A DNA stretch of 64,000 nt from an uncultured Acidobacteriota bacterium (GCA_963799925.1 CAWCYZ010000002.1:1233025-1297024); one strand, 5' to 3'; positions 3,057-59,727 are shown, counted from the stretch's first letter. Numbers and translations: made by a program. The notes: generated by a model from the sequence alone, not told the origin.

Positions 3057-4643
3057 ATGTCCTTTTCCGAACGAGTGGAGAAACTGGACCGGGAGATCGG
3101 CGCCACCTTCGAGCGCGCGCTCGGGACGCTCCGGCGCGATCTGTCCGAGCGCCTGCGCGCCAGCAACGAGCAGCTCCTCCAGAGCATCGCAGAGATCAAG
3201 CCCGAGCTGCCCTCCCGGCTGCTCGCCGACGAGCACGTCGCGCCGTTCGCCCAGGAGGCGACCGGAACGGCGCGCCACGGCGCCTTCGCCGAGCTGCGCG
3301 ATGCGGTCGCGGAGATCGATTCGGCACGCTCGCAGGCGGCGATCCTCTCGGCGCTCCTCGCCAGCGGACGGCGCTTCGCCTCGCGCACGGCGATCCTCAT
3401 CTCCCGCGGCGGCCAGATTCAAGGCTGGGGGGCGCAGGGCTTCGGCGGTGACGAGCAGGCGATCCGCGGCCTGACCCTCGACGCCGCGGCCGACGGTGCC
3501 GACACCGCGCACGGCGCGGCTACCGCCTGGGCGCGCCTCTCCCGCGGCGAGGGCGCGACGCGGCTCTCCGCCGCCGAGTGCGCCGACCTCTGCAGCCGCC
3601 TCGAGAGCCCGCTGCCGCATGACGGCGTCCTGGTGCCGCTGATCCTGCGCAACCAGCTCGCCGCGATGCTCTACGCCGATCGGTTGGACGGCGCCGACCT
3701 GATGGTCGAGGGCCTCCAGACGCTCGCCTACGTCGCCTCCCAGGCCATCGAGTCGCTCCCCTTCCGCGAGCGCGCCGCGACCGCCACCCTGCGCCTGGCC
3801 GATCAGCCGACGGCGGCATCGGCGGCCACCGAGCCCGCCTATGCCGCCGCCGCCGCCGAGCCCGCCCATGTCGCCGCCGAGCCGGAATCTCCAGCCGCCG
3901 AGGCGAGCGCCGCCGAGGCGTCCGCGACCGAGGCCGCGGCGGCGGCTCCAGAGGCCGGCGAGGCGACCGAGCCGGAAGCCCCCGCGCCCGCCCGGCCGGC
4001 CGCACCGGAGCCCGAGCCGGCAGCCGCCCCGTCCGCCTGGGCCCGCACGCAGGAGGTCCCGCGCGTCGACGAGCCGACCGCCGGCGCGCCGGAACCGCGC
4101 GCCGAGGTCGCCGGCCCCGCCGAGACGGTGCTCCTGCCGCGCGCCGCCTTCGCCTCGGCGCCGACGCCGGCGGCCGCCCCCCCCGGCGAGCCCGCCGAGC
4201 TCGATGAAGTCACCCAGGCCGGCGGCCCGCGCGCGGTCCCCGCCGGCGGCTTCGCCGAACCCGCCGGAGCCGACGCCGCGCGCGGCGCGGCCAGCTCGCC
4301 GACCGGCACTCCCGAGGTGCGGCCGCCCTCCGGCGTCCAGGGACCGGGCTGGGCGTTCGCGACGGCGCGCGTCAACGTCGCCGCCGACGACGAAGCGCTG
4401 CACGAGGAGGCGCGGCGCCTGGCGCGCCTCCTCGTCTCCGAGATCAAGCTCTACAACGAGGAGCAGGTCGAGGAAGGGCGGCGCAACCGCGATCTCTACG
4501 AGCGTTTGAAGGACGACATCGACCGCTCGCGCCAGATGTACGAGGAGCGGGTCGAGCCGCGGGTGCTGCGCTCCACCGACTACTTCTACCAGGAGCTGGT
4601 CCGCATCCTCGCCGCTGGGGATTCGAAGGCCCTGGGCATCTGA
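3057..4643 (+). CDS. hypothetical protein: GAF-like N-domain, ~190-aa Pro/Ala/Glu-rich linker, conserved charged C-terminal domain
   Basis: 528-aa ORF with GAGG 5 nt upstream of the ATG. The C-terminus is ARRLARLLVSEIKLYNEEQVEEGRRNRDLYERLKDDIDRSRQMYEERV. No family name is recognised with certainty. Confidence 0.6.
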   Translation: MSFSERVEKLDREIGATFERALGTLRRDLSERLRASNEQLLQSIAEIKPELPSRLLADEHVAPFAQEATGTARHGAFAELRDAVAEIDSARSQAAILSALLASGRRFASRTAILISRGGQIQGWGAQGFGGDEQAIRGLTLDAAADGADTAHGAATAWARLSRGEGATRLSAAECADLCSRLESPLPHDGVLVPLILRNQLAAMLYADRLDGADLMVEGLQTLAYVASQAIESLPFRERAATATLRLADQPTAASAATEPAYAAAAAEPAHVAAEPESPAAEASAAEASATEAAAAAPEAGEATEPEAPAPARPAAPEPEPAAAPSAWARTQEVPRVDEPTAGAPEPRAEVAGPAETVLLPRAAFASAPTPAAAPPGEPAELDEVTQAGGPRAVPAGGFAEPAGADAARGAASSPTGTPEVRPPSGVQGPGWAFATARVNVAADDEALHEEARRLARLLVSEIKLYNEEQVEEGRRNRDLYERLKDDIDRSRQMYEERVEPRVLRSTDYFYQELVRILAAGDSKALGI

Positions 4644-8633: not shown

Positions 8634-8706
8634 GGGTCCATAGCTCAGCGGTTAGAGCGTCCGGCTCATAACCGGCAGGTCCCTGGTTCGAATCCAGGTG
8701 GACCCA
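8634..8706 (+). tRNA. tRNA with CAT anticodon (elongator Met, or Ile2 if lysidine-modified)
   Basis: Cloverleaf read by hand: acceptor GGGTCCA/TGGACCC+A, D arm GCTC-AGCGGTTA-GAGC, anticodon loop CTCATAA, T arm CCTGG-TTCGAAT-CCAGG. CCA is not encoded (CCG follows). Confidence 0.85.
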
Positions 8707-8784
8707 CCGACCGAGGGAGTTCGGGTTGGAGACTGCAAGGAAAGATCAAGTTCCCGTAACCCCGCAAGGGGGGTTCGTGTACCC

Positions 8785-14363: not shown

Positions 14364-16037
14364 TCACCGGGCTTCGTCGGCCGCGTACTCCGGACGGATG
14401 TCGACCGGCAGACCGGCGAGGCGTCCGATGGCGGTGCGGAGCGCCGGGCCCGGCTCGCCGTAGGTGGCGAGGAAGCGCTTCGTCCCGGCGTAGTCGCCGG
14501 CCGCCTGGAGGGTCAGGATGTCGTGCAGCAGGTCGCGGATGGCGGCGGGGAACCGCTCCGAGACGGCGTGGAAGCGGGCCTCCCCATCCTCGACCAGGGC
14601 ACCCTTCGCCAGCAGATAGTTGAGCTGCGCGACGACCCCCTGGCCGTGGGCCTCGTCGATGCCGAAGCGTGCCGCGCGCACCAGGCCGGCGACGTAGGTG
14701 GGCTCGAGGGCGCGGACGATCTCCCGCGGCGCGGCGCCCTGCCCGGCGAGCGCCAGGAGGTTGTAGATCCCCATGACGTCGGCCTTCGCCTCCTCGAGGG
14801 TCGAATAGAGCTCCTTGAGCTCCAGGCGCACCTCGGTCCGGCGGCCGCCGACCTCGATCGTCCCCGGCCCCATGCCGTGCGACAGCTCGTGGTGGAGGAC
14901 CTCGTGGAAGTAGGCGTCGAAGGTGACGCGCCCGGCGTCGCCGGGGGCGAGCGCCAGCGCGGCGACCGGCAGCAGGATCTTGTCGTACTTGGCACGCATG
15001 ACGTTGTGGAGGAGGACGTTCTTCAAGCCCTTGGCCTCGCGTACGCGCTCGTCGTTCGGCAGGTTGAAGGCGAGCGCCTGGACGCCGGCCGCGGCATCGC
15101 CCGCGGCGTAGGCCAGGTCGACGACGCGGATAGGGCTCTCGGCGCCACGGTGGAGGTTCTTGTCGCCGTCAGGAATGGGGAGGTTGCGCTCGAGCCACGG
15201 CAGGCGCTCCTTGTAGCGCGCCAGCGCCGCCGAGACCGCCGGCAGCGCCACCGTGACGAAGGCCTCGAACGCCGCCTTGTAGCCGAAGAGGCCGTCGCCG
15301 TAGGTCTCGTAGGGGCCGATCGTCACCTCGATCGGCGCGTCGACGTCCAACCAGGCGAGGTCGCTCGGGTAGTAGTCGTTCGACAGGAACGCCGCGGCGC
15401 GGGTCTCGAGGTAGCGCTTGAGGGAGGCGTTCTCGGTGGCCGCGCCGGCGGCGCGGAGGCGCTCGGCGGCGGGCCCGAGCCAGGTCCGGTACTCTTCGCA
15501 GTAGGGCACCGCGACGAGGTCCTCGCCGCGCCGGCGGATCGCCGTCACCGGCGAGAGGAACGCCTCCCGGTCGCCGGGATGGACCGCCATCCAGCGCTCG
15601 AGCTCCTCGCGGGTCATGTCCTCCGGGTAGTAGCCCTCGCCTTCCGGGTGCGGGCGGTCGCCGACGAACGGCCGCATCGCATCCAGCCGGTCCCAGGGCC
15701 CGAAGTTGATGGCGAAATAGGCGCGCGCGGCCGCCGCGAGCGGGCCTGACGCCGCGGCCAGGAGGCGCTCGAGCCCCGGGTTCGCCGGCGAGACCTGGCG
15801 CAGGAAGACGGCGTTCAGCTCGCGCGCCGCGGCGATCGTCGCCGCGAGCACTCGGTGGTCCGCGGGCGTCAAGTGCGAGGTGTCGGCCGCCAGCGGCGTC
15901 GGCGAGAGCTGCGCCAGGCGCTCGCGGATGTCCGGCGCGATCGCCGGCATCTCGCCTAGCGGGGCGGCGGGGTCGGGTGGAGCGGATTCGAGGTCGAGCA
16001 CGGTCCTATCGTGGCACACCGCTCGCATGGGGGCCAA
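14364..16037 (-). CDS. M49-family (dipeptidyl-peptidase III-like) zinc metallopeptidase
   Basis: FHEVLHHELSHGMGPG (HExxH-type) and a downstream LEEAKADVMG second zinc motif. 557-aa ORF. The exact start is uncertain. Confidence 0.75.
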   Translation of the reverse strand: MAPMRAVCHDRTVLDLESAPPDPAAPLGEMPAIAPDIRERLAQLSPTPLAADTSHLTPADHRVLAATIAAARELNAVFLRQVSPANPGLERLLAAASGPLAAAARAYFAINFGPWDRLDAMRPFVGDRPHPEGEGYYPEDMTREELERWMAVHPGDREAFLSPVTAIRRRGEDLVAVPYCEEYRTWLGPAAERLRAAGAATENASLKRYLETRAAAFLSNDYYPSDLAWLDVDAPIEVTIGPYETYGDGLFGYKAAFEAFVTVALPAVSAALARYKERLPWLERNLPIPDGDKNLHRGAESPIRVVDLAYAAGDAAAGVQALAFNLPNDERVREAKGLKNVLLHNVMRAKYDKILLPVAALALAPGDAGRVTFDAYFHEVLHHELSHGMGPGTIEVGGRRTEVRLELKELYSTLEEAKADVMGIYNLLALAGQGAAPREIVRALEPTYVAGLVRAARFGIDEAHGQGVVAQLNYLLAKGALVEDGEARFHAVSERFPAAIRDLLHDILTLQAAGDYAGTKRFLATYGEPGPALRTAIGRLAGLPVDIRPEYAADEAR

Positions 16038-39356: not shown

Positions 39357-40418
39357 TCAAAGCGCCACGATTCGGCCCGCCTCCATCTGCCACAGCGAGC
39401 CGACGGGGAGGGTCAGCCAGACCTGCGGCCGGTTGGAGCTCGCGACGATCTGCTCGGCACCGGCGAAGACGTTCCAGACGGCGGCGAGCGTCGGGGGGGC
39501 GAGCTCGGCGTCGGCATCGTCCAGGAGGTAGACCGGGCTCCTGCCGGCGGCGGCGATCACCCGGCCATGGGCGGCCATGAGGAGGAGGGAGAGAGCCTTC
39601 TTCTCGCCGGCCGAGCCGACCCGGCCGAGCTCGCGCTCCCCCCAGAGGATCTCGAGATCGTCGCGGTGGGGCCCGAGGAGCGGGAGCTGACGCTGGCGCT
39701 CACGGTCGGAGATGCGCTCCAGGCTCTCGCGGATCGCCTCCGTTCCCCCGAGCCCCGAGGCGGGCGAGGGGCGATAGCGAAGATCCACCGGCGGAAAGGG
39801 GAGGTCGGCCTCGCCGAGGACCTCCGCCAAACGGCCCGCGAGCGCCTCGACGTAGCTCCGCCGCCGGGCGATGAGCTCGGCCGCGGCGCCGGCGAGGACC
39901 TCGTTCCAAGCTTCGAGCCCGTGGCCGCCCGAGGCGAGGAGCTCGCGCTTCTGGCGCAGAGCCCGGCGGTAGCGGCCGAGAACCTCGAGCGCCGCCGGGC
40001 GCTGGCCGAGGACGCCGCGGTCGAGGAAGCGCCGGCGCAGGACCGGCGGACCGGAGAGCATCTCGGAGTCGCCGGTCGCCCAGGCGACGACCGGGAGAAC
40101 GGCCAGGTGCTCGGCGAGCGGCGCCGGGCGGCCATTGACGGTCCGCAGGCGCCACTCTCCGCCGAAGCCGACCTCGAGGCGGGTCCGCTGCTCGCCCGCG
40201 GCCTCTCCCTCGAGGTGGAAGAGATCGCTCCCGTGGCGGATGCAGTCGCCGAGCTGCGCGGTACGGAAGCTCCGGGTGGTGGCGAGGACGTAGACGGCCT
40301 CGAGGAGGCTCGTCTTCCCCGCGCCGTTGCCGCCGAGGACCAGGTGCGAGCCCGGCGCCGGCCGCCAGACGAGTGGCTCTAGGTTGCGGAAGCCGCTCGC
40401 GGCTAGCTGGGCGAGCAC
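39357..40418 (-). CDS. recF: DNA replication and repair protein RecF
   Basis: FRNLEPLVWRPAPGSHLVLGGNGAGKTSLLEAVYVLATTRSFR (Walker A) and a C-terminal SAGEKKALSLLL...YLLDDADAEL (signature / Walker B). Confidence 0.93.
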   Translation of the reverse strand: MLAQLAASGFRNLEPLVWRPAPGSHLVLGGNGAGKTSLLEAVYVLATTRSFRTAQLGDCIRHGSDLFHLEGEAAGEQRTRLEVGFGGEWRLRTVNGRPAPLAEHLAVLPVVAWATGDSEMLSGPPVLRRRFLDRGVLGQRPAALEVLGRYRRALRQKRELLASGGHGLEAWNEVLAGAAAELIARRRSYVEALAGRLAEVLGEADLPFPPVDLRYRPSPASGLGGTEAIRESLERISDRERQRQLPLLGPHRDDLEILWGERELGRVGSAGEKKALSLLLMAAHGRVIAAAGRSPVYLLDDADAELAPPTLAAVWNVFAGAEQIVASSNRPQVWLTLPVGSLWQMEAGRIVAL

Positions 40419-40437
40419 GCGTCCCCGCGTCTGAGGA

Positions 40438-41553
40438 TCAAATGCGCATCGGCATGATCACGCAGAGATAGCGGCCGTCTGGCCCGTCCTGCGGGTAACC
40501 CACGCACTGGGTGTTCTCGTCCTTGAGCTCCAGCCGCACGCGATCGGTCTCGACCGCGGCGAGGAACTGCGACAGGTAGTCCGGATTCATCCCGACCCGG
40601 AACTCCGGCCCGTCATAGGTGCAGGACACCTCCTCGGTCGCCTCGCCGAGGTCCGGGTTCGCCGCCGAGATCACCATCTGGTCGGGGGTGAACTGCAGGC
40701 GCACGGCGCGCGCGCGATCGCCGGTCAGCAGGGCCACCCGCTGCACGGCCTCGGCCAGGGGCTTGCGGTCGAAGACGACCTTCTTGTCGTTGTCCTTGGC
40801 GATCACCCGCTCGTAGTCGGGGAAGGTCCCTTCGAGGATGCGACAGATGAGCTCGCGGCGGGCGACCCGGAACGAGAGGTGGTGCTCGCCGCGGCGGTAG
40901 GCGAGCTTGCCCTCGCCTTCCAGGCGCTGGATCTCCTGCAGGGCCTTGCGCGGCACCAGGACCGAGTCGCCTTCCGCGCCACCCTCGAGGGCGCCCTCGA
41001 CGAGCGCCAGGCGGTGGCCATCGGTCGCGACCATCTCGAGGGCACCGTCCTTGAGCTTCAACAGCGCCCCGTTGAGCTGGAAGCGCGACTCCTCGGCCGA
41101 GACCGCGAAGAGGATCTTGGCGACCATGCGGCGGAACTCGGCGAACGGGATCTCGGTCGCGGCATTTCCAGGATCGGCGGCGTGGCCGTCGACGACGGGG
41201 AGGGTCGGAAAGTCGTCCGGCGCCATGCCGTGGATCTTGAAGCGCGACTTGCCGGCGCGGATGGTGAGCACCCGCGGCTCGTCGAGGACGAGGTCGATCT
41301 CCTCGCTGGTCAGGGCGCGGACGATCTCCTGGAACTTCTTCGCCTGGATGGCGATCCCCCCCTCCTGGCGGACGTCGGACTCGCACCAGGAGGTGAGCGA
41401 GACGTCGAGGTCGGTCGCCGCCAGATGCAGGCGGTCGCCCCGCGCGGTGAGCAGCAGGTGCGACAGCACCGGGATGGTCGTCTTGCGCTCGACGATCCCC
41501 TGCATGGGGATGAGCTCGCTCAGGAGCTCGCTGCGATTGGCTCGAATTTCCAT
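40438..41553 (-). CDS. dnaN: DNA polymerase III beta sliding clamp
   Basis: 371 aa. Typical N-terminus ...GIVERKTTIPVLSHLLL.A....L.LAATDLDVSL and C-terminus ...YLCVIMPMRI. Confidence 0.95.
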   Translation of the reverse strand: MEIRANRSELLSELIPMQGIVERKTTIPVLSHLLLTARGDRLHLAATDLDVSLTSWCESDVRQEGGIAIQAKKFQEIVRALTSEEIDLVLDEPRVLTIRAGKSRFKIHGMAPDDFPTLPVVDGHAADPGNAATEIPFAEFRRMVAKILFAVSAEESRFQLNGALLKLKDGALEMVATDGHRLALVEGALEGGAEGDSVLVPRKALQEIQRLEGEGKLAYRRGEHHLSFRVARRELICRILEGTFPDYERVIAKDNDKKVVFDRKPLAEAVQRVALLTGDRARAVRLQFTPDQMVISAANPDLGEATEEVSCTYDGPEFRVGMNPDYLSQFLAAVETDRVRLELKDENTQCVGYPQDGPDGRYLCVIMPMRI

Positions 41554-41727
41554 GCACCCCTTCTCCGTCTTGAAAGGAAATATAGCATCAGAGTAGTCGT
41601 AACCGAAGGCGGCTCCCGAAGCTGCGGAAAGCCGCGCTAAGTCGCTGATCCCTCATACCTTCGTTCACCTCGAAAAGCCCGGCTGAAAGCTGTGGACGGC
41701 CTGTGGAGGCGGTGCGGAGCGGAGCGG

Positions 41728-41762
41728 AAAAAAACCCGGCGGCGAAGCTTTCCGCAGCCGCC
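41728..41762 (-). terminator. rho-independent terminator downstream of dnaA
   Basis: On the minus strand, GGCGGC-13 nt-GCCGCC is followed by GGGTTTTTTTCC. The T7 tract is the plus-strand A7 at 41728-41734. Confidence 0.65.
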
Positions 41763-41812
41763 TCCGCCGGCGACGCACAGGCATTTTCACAGCCTTTAAG
41801 GCCCGCACCGGC

Positions 41813-43105
41813 TCAAGTGAAGTGCTGGGAGATGGAGCGTAGGGTCCGCTCGAGGTCGGGGTCGCCGGAGCGCCGTTCCTCGATGTCCTTGACCGCGTAC
41901 ATCACCGTCGAGTGGTGTTTGTCGTTGAAGATCTTGCCGATCTCCGGATAGGAGAGCGGGGTGAGCTGGCGCAGGAGATACATCGCCATCTTGCGCGGGA
42001 AGACCACCTGCTGCGAGTTGTTCTTGCTCTTGATCTCCTTGACCGTCAAGCCGTAGTGGTGAGCCACCCGGCGCACCACCTCGTTGGGCTCGACGCGTTG
42101 CCCCTCGGGCGGCAGGATGTCCTTCAAGGTCTCGCGGGTGAGCTCGAGCGAGATCGGCTTGCCGGTCAAGGAAGAGAAAGCGATCACGCGGTTGAGCAGG
42201 CCTTCGAGCTCGCGGATGTTCGAGCGCACCTGTTGGGCGATGAAGTCGGCGACCGCCGGCGGCAGCTCGATCGCCTCGAAGTCCGCCTTGCGGCGGAGGA
42301 TCGCGACCTTGGTCTCGAGGTCCGGCGGCTGGATGTCGGCGATCAGCCCCCACTCGAAGCGGCTGCGCAGGCGCTCCTCGAGGGTCGGGATGTTTCGCGG
42401 CGACGAGTCGGACGAGAGGATGATCTGCTTCTGGCTGGTATAGAGCGTGTTGAAGGTGTGGAAGAACTCCTCCTGCGTCCGCTCCTTGTTGGCGAGGAAC
42501 TGGACGTCGTCGATCAGCAGCACGTCGATCGTCCGGTAGCGTTCGCGGAAAGCCGGCATGCGGTCGAAGCGGATCGAGTTGATCAGCTCGTTGACGAACT
42601 GCTCGGCTGCCAGGTAGAGGACGCGCAGCTGCGGGTGCGCCGTCTGGATGTGCGAGCCGATGGCGTGGAGGAGATGGGTCTTGCCGAGCCCGACTCCGCC
42701 GTAGAGGAAGAGCGGGTTGTAGCTCTGCGACGGCGCCTCGGCGACCGCCCGCGCCGCGGCGTGGGCGAACTGGTTCGAGCTGCCGACGACGAAGTTGGCG
42801 AACAGGTACTTGGGGTTGAAATGCCCGCGCCCGGTCGGCTCGACCGGCGGTGCCGCCGCCTTCTCCTCGAGCGAGAAGAGAACCTCGAACGAAGAGCCGC
42901 CGAGGCCGGCGACGGCGCGGTCGACCTGCGGCCGGAAGCTCTCCTCGAGGGTGTGGAGGAAGCGGGAGTTGGGCGCCAGCAGGACGAGGCGGTCCGCGTG
43001 CTCGCTCTGCACCTTGAGCGGCCGGAACCAGGTGGAGAATTCCTCGGGGTCGAGCTGTTGCTGGAGCTGTCGTTGGAGCCGTAGCCAGAGGGATGGATCA
43101 GACAT
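41813..43105 (-). CDS. dnaA: chromosomal replication initiator protein DnaA
   Basis: NPLFLYGGVGLGKTHLLHAIG (Walker A), LLIDDVQFL, the FHTFNTL sensor, and the C-terminal DNA-binding helix MYLLRQLT.LSYPEIGKIFN.KHHSTVMYA. Confidence 0.97.
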   Translation of the reverse strand: MSDPSLWLRLQRQLQQQLDPEEFSTWFRPLKVQSEHADRLVLLAPNSRFLHTLEESFRPQVDRAVAGLGGSSFEVLFSLEEKAAAPPVEPTGRGHFNPKYLFANFVVGSSNQFAHAAARAVAEAPSQSYNPLFLYGGVGLGKTHLLHAIGSHIQTAHPQLRVLYLAAEQFVNELINSIRFDRMPAFRERYRTIDVLLIDDVQFLANKERTQEEFFHTFNTLYTSQKQIILSSDSSPRNIPTLEERLRSRFEWGLIADIQPPDLETKVAILRRKADFEAIELPPAVADFIAQQVRSNIRELEGLLNRVIAFSSLTGKPISLELTRETLKDILPPEGQRVEPNEVVRRVAHHYGLTVKEIKSKNNSQQVVFPRKMAMYLLRQLTPLSYPEIGKIFNDKHHSTVMYAVKDIEERRSGDPDLERTLRSISQHFT

Positions 43106-43393
43106 CTGCGAGCTCGCGGCCGAAAGACACAGATATTTTCAACAGGAATTCCACACCTTGCGGAAATCCCCGCGGTACGGAGACTGGAGCTTGTGAGCAG
43201 TGGTCCCGGCGACGACTGCGTGACTATAACACAGCCGCCCGAGCCCGCAAGACCTCCCGGAACAGATCGCAGAAGTGACGATATGTCAATGACTTACCGT
43301 AGCTGGCCAGCTCCCCCGGCGAGGGTTGGCGGAAGGCGGCTCCAGGAGGCGGCGACAAAACCCCGAGCGCCCTTCCGCCCGATGCCACAGCGC

Positions 43394-45153: not shown

Positions 45154-46059
45154 TCAGCCCTGGGCGCGATCCCGCGGGTCGCCATGCGGCGCGTTGGCGA
45201 GCACGAACTCGATCATCGCGCCCGCGATGTCGACCCCGGTCGCCTTCTCGATGCCCTCGAGCCCCGGCGAGCTGTTGACCTCGAGGACCATCGGCCCCTC
45301 GGCCGAGGGGATCAGGTCCACCCCGGCGATGTTCAGGCCGAGCACCTCGGCGGCGTGGATGGCGGTCTGGCGCCAGGTCTCGTCGAGCTCGACGCCGCGC
45401 GCCTTGCCGCCGCGGTGGAGGTTCGACCGGAACTCCCCCTCGCTCGCTTGGCGCGACATCGCCGCGACGACCCGCCCGCCGACGACGATCGCCCGGTAGT
45501 CGGTCCCCGCCGCCTCGCGGATGAAGGCCTGGATCAGGAGGTTCTGCTTCAGGAAATGCATGGCATCGAGCATCGACTCGGCAGATTTGACCGACTCGGC
45601 CAAGATGACGCCCTGGCCCTGCGTCCCCTCGAGGAGCTTCAGGATCACCGGCGCGCCGCCGACCTTCCGGATGGCCGACCGGAGGTCTTCCTTGCGGCGC
45701 ACGAAGACGGTCGGCGGGATGCCGATGTCGTGGCGGGAGAGGAGCTGGAGGGCGCGGAGCTTGTCGCGGCTGCGCGAGATCGCCTGGCTCTCGTTGGCCG
45801 GGAAGACCCCCATCATCTCGAACTGCCGGAGCACCGCGAGGCCGTAGAAGGTGATCGAGGCGCCGATCCGCGGCACGACGCCATCGAGGCCCGTCACCCG
45901 CTCGCCGTGGTGCCAGACCTCGGGACGCTTTTTCGACAGCTTGACCAAGCATTGGAGCGGGTCGAGCACCGAGACCTCGACGCCGCGTGCCTCGACCGCC
46001 GAGACGAGCCGGCTCGTCGAGTAGAGCGCCGCGTTGCGCGACAGGACGGCGATCTTCAT
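45154..46059 (-). CDS. rimK: RimK-family alpha-L-glutamate ligase (ATP-grasp)
   Basis: MKIAVLSRN..LYSTSRL..., VILKLLEGTQGQGVIL, FIREA.GTDYRAIVVGGRVVAAM.R......FRSNLHRGG, GVDLI....GP.VLEVNSSPGLEGIE. Confidence 0.9.
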   Translation of the reverse strand: MKIAVLSRNAALYSTSRLVSAVEARGVEVSVLDPLQCLVKLSKKRPEVWHHGERVTGLDGVVPRIGASITFYGLAVLRQFEMMGVFPANESQAISRSRDKLRALQLLSRHDIGIPPTVFVRRKEDLRSAIRKVGGAPVILKLLEGTQGQGVILAESVKSAESMLDAMHFLKQNLLIQAFIREAAGTDYRAIVVGGRVVAAMSRQASEGEFRSNLHRGGKARGVELDETWRQTAIHAAEVLGLNIAGVDLIPSAEGPMVLEVNSSPGLEGIEKATGVDIAGAMIEFVLANAPHGDPRDRAQG

Positions 46060-46087
46060 GCGCGGGACTGACGCAAGCCCGGGGCCG

Positions 46088-46564
46088 TCATCGGCCGCCG
46101 GGGCGCCGGCGCCGCCCGAGGGCGTAGCGACGCGCGACGTCGACCAGGAAGTCCCCCTCGAGCGCCTTCCTGCCGACGATCATGCGGAACAGCATCCCCG
46201 TGCGGTCGGTCAGGGTGAGGAGGATCCGCTTGCGGACCGCTCCCATCACCAGGTCGGTCGCGATCACCGGGCGGATCTCGGGGTGGCCGCCCGAGTCGGT
46301 CACCTGGACGCGCCCCAGGAGGGGGGCGCGGGCGACCATCACCCGCTGGGGATGGCGGCGGTCGAAGGCTACGGTGAGCTCGACCTCGGCGCCGCCTGCC
46401 TCCGCGTCCTCGAAGACCTGGAGGGAGCTGACGTGGAGCGAGGAGGTGCGGGCGCCGGTGTCCATCTTCGCCTTGAGCCGGTGGATACCGAGCTCGGGGA
46501 GGTCGAGGTACTCCTTCCAACCCACCACGACCGGTCGCGCCCGTCTCTCGGCGGAGGAGAACAT
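46088..46564 (-). CDS. RimK-associated ATP-dependent zinc protease-like (retropepsin-like, DUF785/RimB-type) protein
   Basis: VGWKEYLDLPELGIHRLKAKMDTGARTSSLHV matches the family motif G-W-x-E-x-V-x-L-P...AK.DTGA.TS.LH. It lies immediately upstream of rimK. Confidence 0.75.
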   Translation of the reverse strand: MFSSAERRARPVVVGWKEYLDLPELGIHRLKAKMDTGARTSSLHVSSLQVFEDAEAGGAEVELTVAFDRRHPQRVMVARAPLLGRVQVTDSGGHPEIRPVIATDLVMGAVRKRILLTLTDRTGMLFRMIVGRKALEGDFLVDVARRYALGRRRRPGGR

Positions 46565-46969
46565 CCACGACGATCATACAGAGCCGAAGAAGAAATCGAC
46601 GTCCGTGAAAGAAACGGCCGGCGCGGGTGGTACGGCGTGCACAATCGGCAATGCGCGGGCTCTCCCCTGGGAGGTGCAGCGCCCCGGAGCCGGGCGGCGG
46701 AAGGCTGCGCCCAGCCCTTCCGGCGATCTCCTTGCATAGGTGGAAACAACTAGCAATCAATACGTTAGCCCGGGTTCGTCGTCCTCGCGGCCGGCGGCGG
46801 GCCGCGCGCAAGAGAAGGCTGGCACGTCGGTTGCTTCGACGCGGGACAGGCTTCATAGCGTTACGGGGGAGGTTCCACCCACCAAACCAGTTCCCGCCAT
46901 GACGGGAGGTCTTCTGATCTCTCTCACCTTCCACCCCGCCCCCTTCTTAGGGACTCGCTCTGCACGACA

Positions 46970-46997
46970 CCCAACCGGAGAGTTGGGGCCTCCCCCC
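46970..46997. repeat. 28-nt direct repeat, copy 1 (CCCAACCGGAGAGTTGGGGCCTCCCCCC)
   Basis: 27/28 identical to 47217-47244. It contains the local hairpin CCCAAC-cggaga-GTTGGG. Confidence 0.8.
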
Positions 46998-47216
46998 GAC
47001 GCACCCTTCCTCGGGTGCGTCCGTCGCACGGTATGAACCGAAGGAATCCCGGAGCGGGCATGGGTGTTGCACAGGACAATCGGTACGATGACGAATGGTA
47101 CGCGGGGAGGCACCTCCAACCACACTTTTATCCTGCCTAAAACTTTGAGATCGTTCGCGATCTCACCCCCTAGAAAGCTAGCCTACATCCCCTATCCACA
47201 GGGGTAGATCCAAGAA

Positions 47217-47244
47217 CCCAACCGGAGAGATGGGGCCTCCCCCC
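47217..47244. repeat. 28-nt direct repeat, copy 2 (CCCAACCGGAGAGATGGGGCCTCCCCCC)
   Basis: 27/28 identical to 46970-46997, 247 nt downstream in the same orientation. Confidence 0.8.
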
Positions 47245-47382
47245 TACTCTTTTCCTAAACGAAAAGCGGGGCACGCCCCGCGGCCCTCGGGCCGCGGGGC
47301 TGACTCGTGTCCGCCAGCATCGTCACGCCGAGCGCGACCCCAACTGCCAAATTGGCCCACGCACCGCGCCTATACTGACGCA

Positions 47383-48441
47383 GTGCGGCACGCCGAGCTC
47401 CTCGCCTGGTTCGACCGCCACCGGCGCGATCTGCCGTGGCGGCGGACGCGCGATCCCTATCGCATCTGGCTCTCCGAGGTGATGCTCCAGCAGACCCGGG
47501 TCGAGACGGTGCTCCCCTATTACGAACGCTTCCTCGCCCGCTTCCCGCGCGTCGAGGATCTGGCGGCCGCGGCGATCGAGGACGTGCTCGCCCTCTGGTC
47601 GGGGCTCGGCTACTACCGGCGCGCCCGCCAGCTCCACGCCGCGGCGCGGCGGGTGGTCGAGCGTGGCGGTTTCCCGGCGACCGCGGCAGGATGGCGCGAG
47701 CTCCCCGGCGTGGGTGCCTATACGGCAGCCGCGGTCGCCAGCATCGCCTTCGGCGAGGCGGTCGCGGTGATGGACGGCAACGTCGAGCGCGTGATCTCCC
47801 GCCTCCTCGCCGCTGCCGAGGATCCACACGGGGCCGCGGCCCGGCGGCGGCTCCTCGCGGCGGTCGCCGAGCTGCTCGATCCTGCGCGCCCGGGCGACGG
47901 CAACCAGGCCCTGATGGAGCTGGGGGCGACTCTCTGCGCACCGCGGCGGCCGCGCTGCCTCCTCTGCCCGTTGCAGCCGGGCTGCCGGGCGGCCGCGGAA
48001 GGTGACCCCGAGCGCTACCCGACGCTGCGGCCGCGCCGCGAGCGCCAGCGGCTGCGGCTGGTGGCGGCGGTCGTGGAGCAGGGGACGGTCGATGGGCGGG
48101 AAGGGGAGGTCCTCCTCGTCCGCCGGCCGGAGGGGAGCTCTCTCCTCGCCGGGACCTGGGAGGTGCCGTGGATCGAGGCCGCCGGCCGGCGTTCGGCGGC
48201 GGCGGGGCTCGCGGTGCGCTACGGCGGCGCCTGGAAGCTCGGTCCCCGCCTGGCGCAGGTGCGGCACTCGATCACCCACCGCGACCTCGAGGTGGCGATC
48301 CATCGCGCCGAGCTGGCCGGCGGCGGCGAGGTGGCCGAAGGCGTCGAGGCGGGGTGGTTCGACGGTGCGAGCCGAGCCGGGCTGCCGCTGTCCTCGCTGG
48401 TCGGCAAGGTGCTCGGAGCGCTGGAAGTCCCCGCGAGCTAG
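47383..48441 (+). CDS. mutY: A/G-specific adenine DNA glycosylase MutY
   Basis: The in-frame GTG at 47383 gives VRHAELLAWFDRHRRDLPWRRTRDPYRIWLSEVMLQQTRVETVLPYYERFL..., the HhH-GPD region GLGYYRRAR...LPGVGAYTAAAV, the Fe-S cluster CAPRRPRCLLCPLQPGC, and a NUDIX-like C-terminal domain. Confidence 0.88.
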   Translation: MRHAELLAWFDRHRRDLPWRRTRDPYRIWLSEVMLQQTRVETVLPYYERFLARFPRVEDLAAAAIEDVLALWSGLGYYRRARQLHAAARRVVERGGFPATAAGWRELPGVGAYTAAAVASIAFGEAVAVMDGNVERVISRLLAAAEDPHGAAARRRLLAAVAELLDPARPGDGNQALMELGATLCAPRRPRCLLCPLQPGCRAAAEGDPERYPTLRPRRERQRLRLVAAVVEQGTVDGREGEVLLVRRPEGSSLLAGTWEVPWIEAAGRRSAAAGLAVRYGGAWKLGPRLAQVRHSITHRDLEVAIHRAELAGGGEVAEGVEAGWFDGASRAGLPLSSLVGKVLGALEVPAS

Positions 48442-50178: not shown

Positions 50179-51471
50179 TCAGCCGGCCGCGCTCTCCTCC
50201 AGGCTCTGTTCCAGCAGCTCGAGCGCGCCGTCGAGCTGCTGCCGGGCGATGGTGAGCGGGGGGACGACCTGGACGACGTTCCCCCGCGGTCCCCCCGCCA
50301 GCGCCACGACGCCGCGTCGCAGCGCCGCTCCGACCCACCGCTCGGCGTCCTCCCGCGTCCTCGTCTCGACTCCCCACAGCAGGGCGCGGCCGCGCACCGC
50401 GGCGACCGCCGGGTGGCGCGCCGGCCAACCTGCGAGGCGCGGCGCGATCGCCCGCCCCAGCGCCGCGGCGCGCTCGGCGAGCCGTTCCTCTTCCATGACG
50501 TCGAGCGTGGCGAGGGCGGCGGCGCAGGCGAGCGGGTGGGCGACGAAGGTCGCGGTGTGGAGGGCCTCGCCGTCGCGCTCCCAGACGCGGAAGAGCGCGC
50601 GGCGGCCGAGGACCGCGGCGATCGGCAGCCCCCCGCCGAGCGCCTTGCCGCAGCAGAGGAGGTCGGGGACGACGCCCTCCGCCTCGACCGCGAAGCGGTG
50701 GCCGGTGCGGCCGAAGCCGGTGAAGATCTCGTCGACGATGAGGAGGACGGAGCGCTCGCGGCAGAGGTCGGCGAGCGCGGAGAGCCAGCCCGCCGGTGGC
50801 AGGATGACCCCTTCGCGGCCGACGATCGGCTCGACGACGACGGCGCCCACCTCGCGACGCTCGAGAGCGGCGGCGAGCTCCGACCGCGGGGCGCCGAAAG
50901 GGAGCCGGTGGACGTGCGGATGGAGGTGGGCGGCGAAGGGCTGGCGGAACTCCGGGCGCGAGGTGGCGGCGAGGGCCCCCAGGGTCAGCCCGTGGTAGGC
51001 CGGCTCGAAGGCGAGGAGGCCCGGCCTGCCGGTCGCCACGAGGGCGGTCTTGACCGCGATCTCGACCGCCTCGGCTCCGGAGACGGCGAAGTAGACCTGC
51101 GCGTCGGGGACGGGGGACATGGCGACGAGCCGCGCCGCGAGCGCCGCGCGGCCGGGGTGTGGATGGACGTCGCCCAGCCCGTGCAGCAGCCGTCCGCTCT
51201 GCTCGGCGATCGCCGCCACCACCCGCGGATGGCGGTGGCCGATCGCCGCCACGCCGAAGCCCGAGGTGAGGTCGACATAGCGGTTGCCGTCGGCATCGAG
51301 GATGTTGGCGCCGCGGGCTTCCGACCAGGCGATGGGCGGATCGCCGGTGAGCGGCACGGTGTTGACGCCCGGCGCCTCGACGCGGCGGAGCGTCTCGGCG
51401 AGGGCGCGCGAGCGCGGGCCGGGGGGAGGGGTGAGGATCGCGGGGGGGAGGTCGCCCGGCGCGGCGCTCAC
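50179..51471 (-). CDS. class-III pyridoxal-phosphate aminotransferase (acetylornithine/GABA aminotransferase-like)
   Basis: LTSGFGVAAIGHRHP, SGAEAVE.A.K, LIVDEIFTGFGRTG, and DLLCCGKALGGGLP (the PLP lysine). Confidence 0.85.
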   Translation of the reverse strand: MSAAPGDLPPAILTPPPGPRSRALAETLRRVEAPGVNTVPLTGDPPIAWSEARGANILDADGNRYVDLTSGFGVAAIGHRHPRVVAAIAEQSGRLLHGLGDVHPHPGRAALAARLVAMSPVPDAQVYFAVSGAEAVEIAVKTALVATGRPGLLAFEPAYHGLTLGALAATSRPEFRQPFAAHLHPHVHRLPFGAPRSELAAALERREVGAVVVEPIVGREGVILPPAGWLSALADLCRERSVLLIVDEIFTGFGRTGHRFAVEAEGVVPDLLCCGKALGGGLPIAAVLGRRALFRVWERDGEALHTATFVAHPLACAAALATLDVMEEERLAERAAALGRAIAPRLAGWPARHPAVAAVRGRALLWGVETRTREDAERWVGAALRRGVVALAGGPRGNVVQVVPPLTIARQQLDGALELLEQSLEESAAG

Positions 51472-52058
51472 ATCTCGCGCCGCCCGGCCAGCGAGCGGCC
51501 GAGCGTCACCTCGTCGGTGTACTCGATGTCGCCGCCGACCGGCATGCCGAAGGCGAGCCGGGTCACCCGCATGCCGCGCGTCTTCAACAGCCGGGCCAGG
51601 TAGAGCGCCGTCGCCTCGCCCTCGACGTTGGGGTTGGTGGCGAGGACGATCTCCGCGATTCCGTCGAGCCGCTCGAGGAGGCCGGGGATGGCGAGCCGGT
51701 CGGGGCCGATGCCGCGGTGTGGGGAGAGCGCCCCGAGGAGCACGTGGTAGAGCCCGCGGTACTCGCCGGTGCGCTCGAGGGGCTCGATGTTGAACGGCTC
51801 CTCGACGACGCAGAGCAGCGTCCGGTCACGCTGCGGGTCGGCGCAGATGCGGCAGGGGTCGACGGCGGTGATCGAGTTGCAGCTCGAGCAGTGGAAGAGC
51901 TTCTCCTTGACCTCGACGATCGCCGCGGCCAGAGCGTGCGCCTCCTCGGCGGAGACCTTGAGGAGATAGTGGGCGAGCCGGTTGGCCGTCTTGGGGCCGA
52001 TGCCCGGCAGGCGGGCGAGCTCGCCGACCAGGCGGGCCAGTGGATCGGGCGTCGTCAA
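51468..52058 (-). CDS. recR: recombination protein RecR
   Basis: LARLPGIGPKTANRLAHYLL (HhH), CSSCNSITAVDPCRIC (zinc finger), and the Toprim region LLCVVEEP...IVLATNPNVEGEATA.Y. Confidence 0.95.
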   Translation of the reverse strand: MTTPDPLARLVGELARLPGIGPKTANRLAHYLLKVSAEEAHALAAAIVEVKEKLFHCSSCNSITAVDPCRICADPQRDRTLLCVVEEPFNIEPLERTGEYRGLYHVLLGALSPHRGIGPDRLAIPGLLERLDGIAEIVLATNPNVEGEATALYLARLLKTRGMRVTRLAFGMPVGGDIEYTDEVTLGRSLAGRREM

Positions 52059-52061
52059 CGG

Positions 52062-52358
52062 TTAGAACAGACCGGGCAGACCCGCGGTGATCGCCCCCAC
52101 CCGGCCCTGCATCGTCTCTTCGAGCTTGCGCCCCGCCTCGTTGACGGCGGCGACGATCAGGTCCTCGAGCATGCTCGGATCTTCCTTGTCCATCACCTCG
52201 GGATCGATCTTGACCGACAGGAGCTGCTTGTGGCCGCTCAGCCTGACCGAGACCATGCCGCCGCCGACGCTCGCCTCGACCACCGTCTCGGCCAGCTCGC
52301 GCTGCAGCCTCTCCTGCATCTCCTGGGCTTGCTTCATCAGCTGTCGCATGCTGCTCAT
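52062..52358 (-). CDS. ybaB: YbaB/EbfC-family nucleoid-associated protein
   Basis: 98 aa. MRQLMKQAQEMQERLQRELAE..VEASVGGGMV.V...G......KIDPEV.D.ED..MLEDLI.AAVNEA. Canonical position between dnaX and recR. Confidence 0.93.
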   Translation of the reverse strand: MSSMRQLMKQAQEMQERLQRELAETVVEASVGGGMVSVRLSGHKQLLSVKIDPEVMDKEDPSMLEDLIVAAVNEAGRKLEETMQGRVGAITAGLPGLF

Positions 52359-52365
52359 ATTCTGC

Positions 52366-54158
52366 TCAATCCTCTCTTCCGATCGCGGGAAAGCTTCCGT
52401 GTTCCTCCACCTTCTCGACGCGGCCGCCGAAGATGTCGAGGACAGTCTGAATGGTGGGGTTGGCCTCGACCAGCTCGAGCTTGACCGTCGAGAGGTCGGG
52501 CGCGATCGCGGCGGCCGTCCGCTGGCCCGCGCCGGCGAGCAGGGTGAATCCGGTCCCCGCGCCCCAGGCGTGGGCGAGCGCCTGCTCCAGGACCTCGCGG
52601 TTGTTGCCGCGGTCGAGGCGCTGCGGCAGCCAGGGATCGCCGGATGAGTGGACGATCACCAGCCGGCCGTCCTCGAAGCGCAGGTCCTCGGCCGCCCGCA
52701 GGTGGGCGGCGAGCGGCTGCTTGAGCTTCTCGAGCTCCTGGAGGAAGGCCTCGAGGCGCTCGCCGCCCCGCGAGTCGCGGGCGGGAGCGGCGGCCGGCAT
52801 CGCGGGCTCGGGGGCGGCCGCGCGGTGCGGCGCGGGCCGATCGGTGAGCGCTTCGCGGCCGCGAGCTTCCGCCGGCGCTTGCGGAGCGGCGGGGGTGCGC
52901 CGGCGGCAGCGGTGTGAGCCGCCGGAGGCGGGGATGGCGCTCCGGAAGCTGCCGAAGCCATGGCGCGCGGCGCCGTCCGAGCCGCCGGAGGGGGAGCGGG
53001 CAGCGCGACCGGGCGTCCCCCGACCGGTCCCGCCGGCGCCAGGCCGGAGAGCAGCTCCTCGATCCGGGTGAGCTTCGGCAGCTCGGCGGCGCGCAGCCAG
53101 GCGATCTCGACGGCGAGCGCGCCGGCCTCGCTGCGCCGCACCATCTGCTCGCTGGCGAGAAGCTGCTGGAGGAGGCGCAGGAGGTTCTCGTAGCCCGCCG
53201 CCTTGGCCGTGGTGGCGAGGGCCGCCGCCTCCTCGCCCGGCAGATCGATCTGGCCGGGGTTGCCGCCCATGGCGAGGTGGAGGCCGTCGCGGCAGAAGGC
53301 GAGGAACTGGCCGTAGACGTGCCGCGGGTCCCAGCCCTCGTCCTCGACCCTGCCGATGGCGGCCGAGACCGCGGCGCCGTCCCCCCCGAGGATGCCGTGG
53401 AGGAGGCGGGCGAAGAGGGCGGTGTCGAGCCCGCCCAGGAGGCGGACCGCCTCCTCGTCGGAGATCGATCCCGAGCCGAAGGTGGCGAGCTGGTCCAAGA
53501 GCGCGACGGCGTCGCGGACGCTCCCCTCGCCCGCCCGCGCGATCAGGCGCAGGGCCGTGTCGCTCGCCTGGATCTCCTCGGAGCGGCAGATCTCGCCCAG
53601 GAGGGCGACGACCTCGGCCGCCGGCACGCGCCGGAAGTGGAACTCCTGGCAGCGCGAGAGGATGGTCGCCGGGACGGCCTCGATCTCGGTGGTGGCGAAG
53701 ATGAAGACGAGGTGGGGCGGCGGCTCTTCGACGATCTTCAGCAACGCGTCGAAGGCCTGGCGGGAGAGGCGGTGGATCTCGTCCAGGACCACCACCTTGT
53801 AGCGGTCGCGCGCCGGCCCGTAGCGGAGGCTCTCGGTGAGCTCGCGGACCTGCTCGACCTTCGAATAGGTGGCGGCGTCGACCTCGATGACGTCCATGTC
53901 CGCCCCGCGCGTGATCTCGACGCAGGCCGCGCACTCGTTGCACGGATCGGCCGCCGGCCCCCGCTCACAGTTGAGGGCCTTGGCGAGCACCCGCGCCGCG
54001 GTCGTCTTGCCGACGCCGCGGATCCCCGAGAACAGATAGGCCTGGGCGATCCGGCCCTCCTGCAGGGCGTTGCGCAGAGCGGTGACGATCGGCTCCTGGC
54101 CGACGAGGCTGGAAAAGTTCTGCGGGCGCCACTTGCGGGCGAGAACCTGGTAGGTCAT
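52366..54158 (-). CDS. dnaX: DNA polymerase III subunit gamma/tau; the tau C-terminal domain is reachable only via a -1 frame change at a homopolymer
   Basis: N-terminus MTYQVLARKWRPQNFSSLVGQE...FSGIRGVGKTTAARVLAKALNCE...CNECAACVEI...VVVLDEIHRLS...SRCQEFHF. The conserved C-terminus (ERLEAFLQELEKLKQPLAAHL...IQTVLDIFGGRVEKVEE) is in the frame of ORF 52366-53943. The junction maps to the G5 run at 52891-52895. Confidence 0.88.
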
Positions 54159-54169
54159 GACGACGGGGC

Positions 54170-54302
54170 GGCAGTGGCCGACGAAGGGTTCCGGTTGAGC
54201 TGCGGCACTCGATGCGCCGACCTTATCGCTGCTCCCTTCCGGGCCTGACGAGGTTCGGTGGCGACCGATGCACAGGACCCGAACCCTTCGTCCGCCACTG
54301 CC
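54170..54302 (-). ncRNA. ffs: signal recognition particle RNA (small/4.5S type)
   Basis: The minus strand reads GGCAGUGGCGGACGAAGGGUUC...GUCAGGCCCGGAAGGGAGCAGCG...GAACCCUUCGUCGGCCACUGCC. This gives a long closing helix plus the conserved domain-IV motif GUCAGG.CCGGAAGG.AGCAGC. It lies immediately upstream of dnaX, a common arrangement. Confidence 0.85.
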
Positions 54303-54362
54303 GGAAGGGTCATCGTATGTCCTGGGGTCGGGGATGTAAAGGTGGGTTGCCGGGGCTGAGAG

Positions 54363-54390
54363 CCCTCGCGCCCGCGAGAGAAAAGGAGAC
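54363..54390 (+). repeat. 28-bp direct repeat copy 1 (CCCTCGCGCCCGCGAGAGAAAAGGAGAC): palindrome CTCGCG-CC-CGCGAG plus an orphan Shine-Dalgarno
   Basis: Identical 28/28 to 58449-58476. No ATG/GTG/TTG occurs within 20 nt downstream of this copy. Confidence 0.9.
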
Positions 54391-54468
54391 GCGGCGGCCG
54401 GCTCGAGGCGGCTACCGTCTCGCTATACTCCGGGCCAGCTGCATTGTCCCGCAGGGGAGCTCCCGCCT

Positions 54469-59533: not shown

Positions 59534-59623
59534 TGGCGGAGAGGGTGGGATTCGAACCCACGGACCGGTTGCCCGGTCAACGGTTTTCGAGACCGTCCCA
59601 TTCAACCACTCTGGCACCTCTCC
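59534..59623 (-). tRNA. tRNA-Ser (CGA), CCA encoded
   Basis: Minus strand GGAGAGGTGCCAGAGTGG...ACGGT-CTCGAAA-ACCGT, a long variable arm, GTGGGTTCGAATCCCAC-CCTCTCC-G-CCA. 90 nt. Confidence 0.93.
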
Positions 59624-59636
59624 GGGTTGCTGCGTG

Positions 59637-59727
<91 letters not shown>

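Follow-up and report, generated by a model that had tools for sequence, protein, structure and literature searches.

Tandem small-RNA units with predicted sigma-54 promoters occupy the gene-free spacer upstream of mutY in Thermoanaerobaculia

What fills a long stretch of bacterial DNA that seems to hold no gene? The window analysed here, 64 kb of DNA from an uncultured Acidobacteriota bacterium, contains such a stretch, an 818-nt spacer (46565-47382) between a minus-strand RimB-like gene and the plus-strand gene mutY. Beyond the RimB-like gene, the minus-strand genes are, in order, rimK, an S49 peptidase gene, dnaA, dnaN and recF. A sequence-only reading had described the spacer as gene-free, GC-poor and dense in hairpins, and had offered two accounts of it: unassigned structured RNA(s), or replication/recombination-related DNA. 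Coordinates and Pfam matches agree with the length and the flanking genes given in that reading, and its hand count of a low GC content is borne out by measurement (0.57-0.60 at 47000-47299 versus 0.70-0.80 in the flanking genes). The five hairpins that it listed are all present where it placed them; one of these, CTAG-aaag-CTAG, falls in a variable stretch and is not conserved. Both halves of the spacer beat dinucleotide shuffles in folding, with z scores of -3.45 and -3.53 and 0 of 200 shuffles as good.

We considered, and rejected, the idea that the spacer is a gene in decay. The three spacer ORFs tested, at 46056-46934 (minus strand), 46627-46902 (plus strand) and 46740-47036 (plus strand), have no Pfam match, consistent with the earlier judgement that no credible ORF is present. 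The aligned region contains indels of 1-2 nt, and tblastn matches of the mechanical ORFs that reach into the spacer are mainly the RimB-like gene read in other frames. An exact-protein look-up of the RimB-like gene gave no match, and a scan of the spacer for sigma-70 promoters returned no site.

We find that the spacer is not featureless: it carries two tandem plus-strand units, each composed of a promoter, a short leader, an RNA core of ~140 nt and a GC-rich hairpin. Taken as a whole, it is probably best explained as a two-gene tandem array belonging to a previously undescribed, sigma-54-driven small-RNA family of Thermoanaerobaculia. The features of the locus are as follows, with scores from R1, the covariance model described below.

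46088-46564, minus strand: RimB-like Zn_protease gene (PF05618, by Pfam), the left flank.
46606-46655, plus strand: candidate enhancer (activator-binding) block, TGAAAGAAA (46606-46614) followed by TGCACAATCGGCAATGCG (46638-46655), conserved with the related loci L001 and L002 and degenerate in the window.
46755-46767, plus strand: match to the IHF consensus, AATCAATACGTTA (WATCAANNNNTTR), 66 nt upstream of the -24 GG of promoter 1.
46820-46835, plus strand: predicted sigma-54 promoter of copy 1, TGGCACGTCGGTTGCT, an exact match to TGGCAY-N5-TTGCW with the canonical GG-to-GC spacing.
46864-46998, plus strand: core of small RNA copy 1, a divergent paralogue (R1, 76.7 bits, E = 1.4e-16).
46865-46877/46984-46996 (P1), 46906-46911/46916-46921 (P2) and 46941-46944/46949-46952 (P3), plus strand: helices of copy 1, from the single-sequence fold and the inverted repeat.
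46998-47021, plus strand: 3' hairpin of copy 1, GACGCACCC-ttcctc-GGGTGCGTC, terminator-like, without a U tract.
47056-47071, plus strand: predicted sigma-54 promoter of copy 2, GGGCATGGGTGTTGCA, one mismatch to the consensus.
47102-47245, plus strand: core of small RNA copy 2, of the mutY-proximal type (R1, 116.6 bits, E = 3.8e-25).
47104-47114/47232-47242 (P1), 47147-47153/47158-47164 (P2) and 47189-47193/47200-47204 (P3), plus strand: helices of copy 2.
47249-47300, plus strand: two 3' hairpins of copy 2, including a 12-bp GC hairpin at 47275-47300, terminator-like, without a U tract.
47383-48441, plus strand: mutY (HhH-GPD and NUDIX_4, by Pfam), with a GTG start at 47383, the right flank.

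Each unit begins with GGGG(G)AGG.. and ends with ..CCAACCGGAGAG(A/U)UGGGGCCUCCCCCC, and these two ends pair with each other as inverted repeats. The 28-nt direct repeats that had already been pointed out (46970-46995 and 47217-47242) are real, with 0 expected by chance, and they are the 3' ends of the two homologous plus-strand RNA copies. Similarly, one of three TTCCACC heptamers that had been listed as possible DNA signals, that at 46873-46879, belongs to the 5' strand of P1 in copy 1. The two copies in the window are 51% identical. Copy 2 shares 88-89% identity with its orthologues in L001 and L002, in which the two 3' hairpins are arranged in a like manner, and copy 1, despite its divergence, retains P1, P2, a shortened P3, the promoter and the hairpin. 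With its filters off, R1 did not find a third degenerate copy in 46565-46860, and with default filters it gave no further match at E <= 1 elsewhere in the 64 kb.

To place the units in a wider context, we fetched syntenic loci via MutY, taking the 53 closest, all from Thermoanaerobaculia/Acidobacteriota metagenome-assembled genomes with a MutY 53-87% identical. Most of these 53 loci have the 3' motif ahead of mutY and on its strand, and the motif is conserved even where the relatives' MutY is only 56-87% identical. R1 was built from 43 trimmed copies (MAFFT alignment A3) and identified 91 copies in the window and the 53 genome loci. An exact-pattern scan of metagenome contigs supplied 42 further loci, in which R1 made 93 matches; nearly all of the sequences used are from metagenome-assembled genomes or metagenome contigs. 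Full-length copies number 181, in 86 related Thermoanaerobaculia/Acidobacteriota loci, of which 19 hold one copy (some being cut by contig ends), 39 hold two and 28 hold three. The units had no match in viral contigs, and we therefore rejected a mobile or phage origin.

The position of the arrays is strikingly uniform. They lie between the dnaA-side genes and mutY, with all copies but one on the mutY strand, and the downstream neighbour is invariably mutY in the loci that have units. All 42 metagenome loci are syntenic: mutY flanks the array at one end, and dnaA, the S49 peptidase gene, rimK or the RimB-like gene flanks it at the opposite end. There is also one subclade in which dnaA directly adjoins mutY, without a unit. 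For 79 of 80 copies, the nearest relative belonged to a different genome, and for 69 of those 79 it occupied the same rank in its array. Copies within an array are about 60% identical. As nearest relatives lie in other genomes and at equal rank, the arrays are made up of old paralogues kept in order, not of recent duplications. That three ancient paralogues keep so strict a tandem order suggests, from these comparisons, a division of labour among them.

If the units encode structured RNAs, then paired positions should change together, and the earlier reading had proposed a search of relatives for homologous spacers and covarying base pairs. We found both. The consensus consists of three helices: P1, a closing stem of ~12 bp between the 5' and 3' ends; P2, a hairpin formed by GAGAUC/GAUCUC; and P3, a hairpin formed by CCCCU/AGGGG. 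In the 91-copy alignment A4, which is model-fitted and so favours the R1 structure, pairing holds in 96.3% of cells and double changes are seen at 20 of 23 pairs. None of 500 shuffles does as well, and slid controls stay at or below 64% paired. In A3 (MAFFT, 43 copies), which is not model-fitted, 93.5% of cells are paired and double changes occur in 11 of 27 pairs, again matched by 0 of 500 shuffles. Mutual information recovered only P1 and P2, whose pairs rank at the top. Variants of P1 are fully compensated, as in GAAGGGGGUCCC/GGGGCCCCUUC, GAAGCGCC/GGCGCUUC and UUUC/GGAA. A fourth helix proposed by RNAalifold, CUCU/AGAG, showed neither covariation nor a mutual-information signal and was rejected.

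These compensatory changes across homologues are confined to one strand, as is characteristic of a structured non-coding RNA. U-G pairs are common in P1 in the 91-copy alignment, and R1 scores copy 2 at 116.6 bits on the plus strand versus 10.1 bits on the minus strand, and copy 1 at 76.7 versus 10.1 bits. The fold of copy 2 has a z score of -2.39 on the plus strand versus -0.75 on the minus strand. The G-U pairs, and a model score that differs by roughly 100 bits between the strands, show that what is conserved is an RNA of the plus strand.

Might the repeats and hairpins nevertheless act as DNA, in a replication origin or a recombination site? The intuition about the neighbourhood that lay behind this suggestion is sound, as dnaA-dnaN-recF lies 3.4 kb to the left of the spacer (dnaA at 41813-43138) and gene orientation switches at the spacer. 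Several relatives have dnaA right beside the array, in divergent orientation, and in loci L046 and L049 clusters of DnaA-box-like TCCACA lie between dnaA and the array. From this arrangement, in the window and in relatives, the chromosome origin is probably near the array. The spacer itself, however, contains no TCCACA cluster and no DnaA-box cluster of the kind that marks an oriC. The 8/9 DnaA-box match noted earlier does exist, but it is the only match in the 64 kb (<=1 mismatch, TTATCCACA-like), where about 1 is expected by chance, and it sits in the variable, non-conserved P3 loop of copy 2. GC skew over the 64 kb was uninformative. Many of the conserved pairs are G-U, and the model strongly favours one strand. 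The description of the spacer as replication/recombination-related DNA is not supported, and we consider a role as a DNA element extremely unlikely.

A plus-strand RNA raises the question of how it is transcribed. Among the copies with enough flank, 171 of 177 have a sigma-54 motif 15-45 nt before the model start, compared with at most 0.7% of random positions in the same loci. In most copies the word GGCA(C/U)-N5-UUGC(A/U) stands 20-34 nt ahead of the core; it corresponds to the sigma-54 -24/-12 consensus (TGGCAC-N5-TTGCW), with the -24 GG and the -12 GC in the canonical 12-nt register. The 64-kb window as a whole has only three matches to the motif, and two of them are the promoters of the copies. 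By the usual -12 rule, transcription is predicted to start near 46846 for copy 1 and near 47082 for copy 2.

At the other end of the unit, 167 of 180 copies are followed within 60 nt by a stable hairpin (dG <= -10 kcal/mol). By a crude rule, a T run follows the hairpin in only 40 of 180 copies, and neither copy in the window has one; in several orthologues elsewhere, a T run does follow the hairpin, ahead of mutY. A terminator scan tool reported only weak sites. With its own sigma-54 motif and its own 3' hairpin, each copy is an independent promoter-RNA-hairpin unit, and as the 3' hairpins in the window lack U tracts, transcription may run on into the next copy or into mutY.

Sigma-54 promoters work with an enhancer further upstream to which an AAA+ activator binds, and an IHF site often lies in between. 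In many loci, the upstream block has the pattern TGyAGAAA, about 20 nt, then UUGyAC. Measured from the -24 GG of the distal promoter, 51 of 66 loci have the word TG[TC]AG[AG]AA at a fixed position. For most of them this is -131 to -136; a second group, to which the window and its closest relative, L001, belong, has the word at roughly -200, mostly between -192 and -204. The spacing does not depend on whether dnaA, the S49 peptidase gene or the RimB-like gene lies to the left. Over short words only, the block loosely resembles the half-site of the E. coli AtoC enhancer (PMC3118216). A strict match to the IHF consensus is present only in the window and L001, and a core match in 10 of 66 loci; the word at 46755-46767 might conceivably be an IHF site. 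Because block, IHF consensus and promoter follow the classical enhancer-dependent layout, we read 46565-46819 as the stretch that likely controls copy 1 and that probably also includes the divergent promoter of the RimB-like operon. As for the proteins, RpoN is encoded in all three Acidobacteria genomes surveyed (PMC3372290). A search for rpoN or an enhancer-binding protein among the window and loci L001-L053 found no RpoN-box or GAFTGA motif in any frame.

Is this a known RNA? A scan against Rfam had been proposed as a check, and it returned no known family: Rfam 15 has no match for the spacer at E <= 10, and none that overlaps it at gathering thresholds. Nor did ARAGORN find a tRNA or tmRNA there. 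The earlier reading had seen no RNase P, tmRNA, cobalamin or SRP signatures in the spacer; the SRP RNA of the window lies elsewhere, at 54186-54284. The models for Qrr, sX13, 6S, Y RNA/YrlA, SRP, tmRNA, RNase P and Acido-1 did not reach their gathering thresholds. The best match in 46000-48000 is sX13, which is insignificant (E = 2), its 17.6 bits lying below the threshold of 50. Permissive thresholds brought up scattered sub-threshold matches to sX13, sbcD, BjrC68 and miRNA models, which we rejected, and in eight other loci there was no match at E <= 1 and no family recurring over the copies. In full-text literature we found no description of this RNA, and nothing on RNA regulators of Thermoanaerobaculia. 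It is therefore well supported by sequence comparison that the RNA family is new and absent from Rfam, while its design, a set of sigma-54-driven sRNA paralogues, is already known. The term "unassigned structured RNA(s)" was thus apt: the spacer holds two tandem copies with covariation-supported helices, sigma-54 promoter motifs and 3' hairpins.

What might such RNAs do? Unpaired yet conserved sequence makes up about 60% of the core, and this interior is rich in C (35%) and poor in G (16.5%). Four sites carry words of the form CCNNCC, in 82, 85, at least 47 and 81 of the 91 copies, with invariant C's and two central bases that vary freely; each interior has 4.19 such words, compared with 1.58 +/- 1.45 in shuffles. 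Transcription would need RNA polymerase with sigma-54 and an enhancer-binding activator, and this putative activator probably binds the conserved upstream block at its fixed distance from the first promoter. With the activator at one block upstream of the first promoter, the amount of RNA would report one signal. We propose that the RNAs would then act in trans, and that their working surface would be the long, G-poor, unpaired interior with its four CCNNCC words. In their combination of sigma-54 promoters, paralogues, a closing stem and repeated unpaired words, the units most resemble signal-controlled trans-acting riboregulators.

The partner of that surface is less certain. Our tentative preference is for titration or scaffolding of an RNA-binding protein over antisense pairing, because the bases within the words are free and because conservation extends across the whole molecule. 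The CCNNCC words do differ from the GGA and A-rich motifs of protein-titrating sRNAs of the CsrB/RsmZ and CrcZ type. In the antisense alternative, which we hold to be a serious but somewhat doubtful one, the same sigma-54 sRNAs would use CCNNCC and CACCCUCU to pair with G-rich or Shine-Dalgarno regions of several mRNAs and block translation, in the manner of other small RNAs with C-rich seeds, and the multiple copies would add dosage, as the Qrr RNAs do. Most bacterial small RNAs of such build, with a promoter and 3' hairpin of their own, do act by base pairing; the unpaired, G-poor, C-rich interior with its repeated C words would suit this, and the best, albeit insignificant, Rfam match, sX13, is a small RNA with C-rich loops. 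However, free central bases between invariant C's are unusual for a seed, conservation runs along the entire molecule and not over one seed, and CCWNCC differs from the anti-Shine-Dalgarno CCUCC. The start region of mutY showed no special complementarity either (mean z of -0.1, in a crude RNAduplex test without accessibility). A more specific form of titration, which we regard as improbable, is that the RNAs could be decoys for a global protein that binds C-rich single-stranded RNA, for example Rho or a KH-domain protein, and could retune genome-wide termination or RNA turnover according to the signal. Rho primary sites bind YC dinucleotides; to our knowledge, no sRNA sponge for a Rho-like or KH-domain C-rich-RNA-binding protein has been described.

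A purely trans-acting role does not account for the strict linkage to mutY. Might the units, or at least the mutY-proximal one, instead be riboswitch-like leaders that respond to a ligand or protein and govern read-through into mutY? The place directly upstream of mutY, on the same strand and invariant in 95 loci, would fit such a leader, as would the covarying stems, the invariant, aptamer-like junction bases and the lack of U tracts after the 3' hairpins in the window. Yet every copy has a sigma-54 promoter, including the distal copies that are followed only by another copy; in several orthologues a hairpin and T run precede mutY; and the subclade with dnaA next to mutY does without a unit. 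The sequence of the 3' hairpin does not track the variants of P1, so no alternative pairing is evident, and mutual information indicated no extra helices. With a promoter per unit and no mutually exclusive pairings seen, the units do not look like a riboswitch or cis-leader, and the promoters together with the terminator-like endings of many copies make cis control of mutY unlikely; we give it little credence. We give still less to a divergent member of a known RNA class beyond the reach of Rfam, such as a bacterial Y RNA or 6S RNA. The long closing stem formed by the 5' and 3' ends recalls these classes: the closing stem of bacterial Y RNA is bound by Ro/Rsr, Y RNA is under sigma-54/RtcR control in Salmonella, and YrlA/YrlB combine tandem copies with sigma-54 control. 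Against this, there was no significant Rfam match in the spacer or in the eight other loci, no rsr/TROVE or rtcB among the neighbours identified by Pfam or by similarity to window genes, and neither a tRNA-like module nor a 6S-type central bubble in the consensus.

The preferred reading, signal-controlled RNAs that act in trans, has several counterparts in other bacteria. Qrr RNAs are ~100 nt long, have a conserved 32-nt seed and lack a closing 5'/3' stem. Like the units, Qrr1-5 are paralogous, short stand-alone genes that each have a sigma-54 promoter of their own and end in a 3' hairpin; in Vibrio, four or five paralogous sRNA genes with their own sigma-54 promoters are driven by LuxO and give a graded output (PMC13501541). 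The units in the window, by contrast, have no Rfam match to Qrr, belong to another phylum and stand in tandem at one locus, whereas the Qrr genes are scattered. CrcZ and CrcY of Pseudomonas, under CbrB and sigma-54, are decoys for an RNA-binding protein and exist as paralogous copies. They, and GlmY under GlrR and sigma-54, are sigma-54/enhancer-dependent sRNAs that serve as decoys via repeated unpaired motifs or mimicry; GlmY of enterobacteria is described as a decoy small RNA (PMC7073468). The units share no homology with CrcZ and carry CCNNCC in place of its A-rich or CA motif, and titration would here be a proposed role.

Repeated unpaired C-rich words are also found in sX13 of Xanthomonas, LhrC1-5 of Listeria and RsaE/RoxS. 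In those RNAs, which are not sigma-54-dependent, the C runs lie in hairpin loops and match the Shine-Dalgarno sequence, whereas the words described here lie in junctions and have free central bases. LhrC, like the units, exists in tandem copies. Pxr of Myxococcus is an sRNA whose promoter is of the sigma-54 type and which in some species exists as tandem paralogues, and NsiR1 of Nostocales consists of tandem promoter-small RNA-terminator units at one fixed locus, with promoters that are not of the sigma-54 type. Both differ from the units in sequence and structure, and both come from other phyla.

Thermoanaerobaculia are abundant soil and sediment Acidobacteriota. Collectively, our data describe a new RNA family in these bacteria, with 181 full-length copies, covariation, a defined promoter type and a fixed genomic address, which makes it a candidate for an Rfam entry and a lineage marker. 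It extends the design of several sigma-54-driven sRNA paralogues, familiar from Vibrio, Pseudomonas and enterobacteria, to another phylum, and it explains a large "gene-free" spacer beside replication-origin genes that gene callers leave blank. We consider this to be of moderate-to-high value for RNA biologists and for the biology of the Acidobacteriota. A further, improbable reading is that the fixed position beside dnaA/oriC and mutY could reflect a role for the array in coupling its signal to replication or repair.

Three genes lie in a row to the left of the spacer that holds the RNA array:

39357-43138, minus strand: recF, dnaN and dnaA in a row (Pfam)

This row probably places the chromosome origin region near the RNA-array spacer. 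Among related Thermoanaerobaculia/Acidobacteriota loci, dnaA itself stands directly beside the array, in divergent orientation, in relatives such as L010, L012, L037, L046, L082, L089 and L098. In the stretch separating dnaA from the first RNA copy, we found clusters of TCCACA-type, DnaA-box-like words in L046 (~2100-2200) and L049 (~3500-3560), examples being AAATCCACA, present three times, and TGTGGAAAA. These clusters are likely the oriC of those two genomes. No comparable TCCACA-type cluster was seen in the window.

The other flank of the array carries two sequence words close to the mutY start, a GTG at 47383:

47344-47357: palindrome CTGCCAAATTGGCC, ~30 nt ahead of this GTG
47371-47376: TATACT, ending 6 nt before the mutY GTG

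Many loci have words similar to the palindrome, TGCCAAATTGGC, upstream of mutY. The position of TATACT hints that the mutY mRNA may be leaderless. A further word, GGAAU/GGAAT, lies at 47041-47045 and recurs at the same position in many loci; in many genomes, it precedes the -24 GG in the promoter of the mutY-proximal copy by 10-12 nt. Besides the two array promoters, the window holds a single sigma-54-like match:

16012-16027, plus strand: TGGCACACCGCTCGCA, with one mismatch

Elsewhere in the window, RNA genes were found at three places, one of them beside dnaX, ybaB and recR:

8634-8708, plus strand: one tRNA-Met gene
51468-52061, minus strand: recR
52062-52655, minus strand: ybaB
52656-54422, minus strand: dnaX, as a mechanically called ORF
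54186-54284, minus strand: bacterial small SRP RNA (RF00169, 64.4 bits)
59534-59727, minus strand: a tandem pair of tRNA-Ser genes with CGA and GGA anticodons

After the SRP RNA, reading along its strand, come dnaX, ybaB and recR in that order. As the mechanical dnaX ORF overlaps the SRP RNA, the true dnaX start must be further downstream.

In the subclade comprising L027, L031, L036, L039 and L040, mutY directly adjoins dnaA (with a gap of ~170 bp in L031, for example), and no RNA copy was found at the dnaA-mutY junction of these five loci. In their genomes, the array has been either lost or relocated elsewhere. Orientation relative to mutY is nearly invariant, with only 1 of ~180 copies on the opposite strand (L046, 3029-3172, minus). 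Because this copy carries its own sigma-54 motif, it represents a local inversion inside an array.
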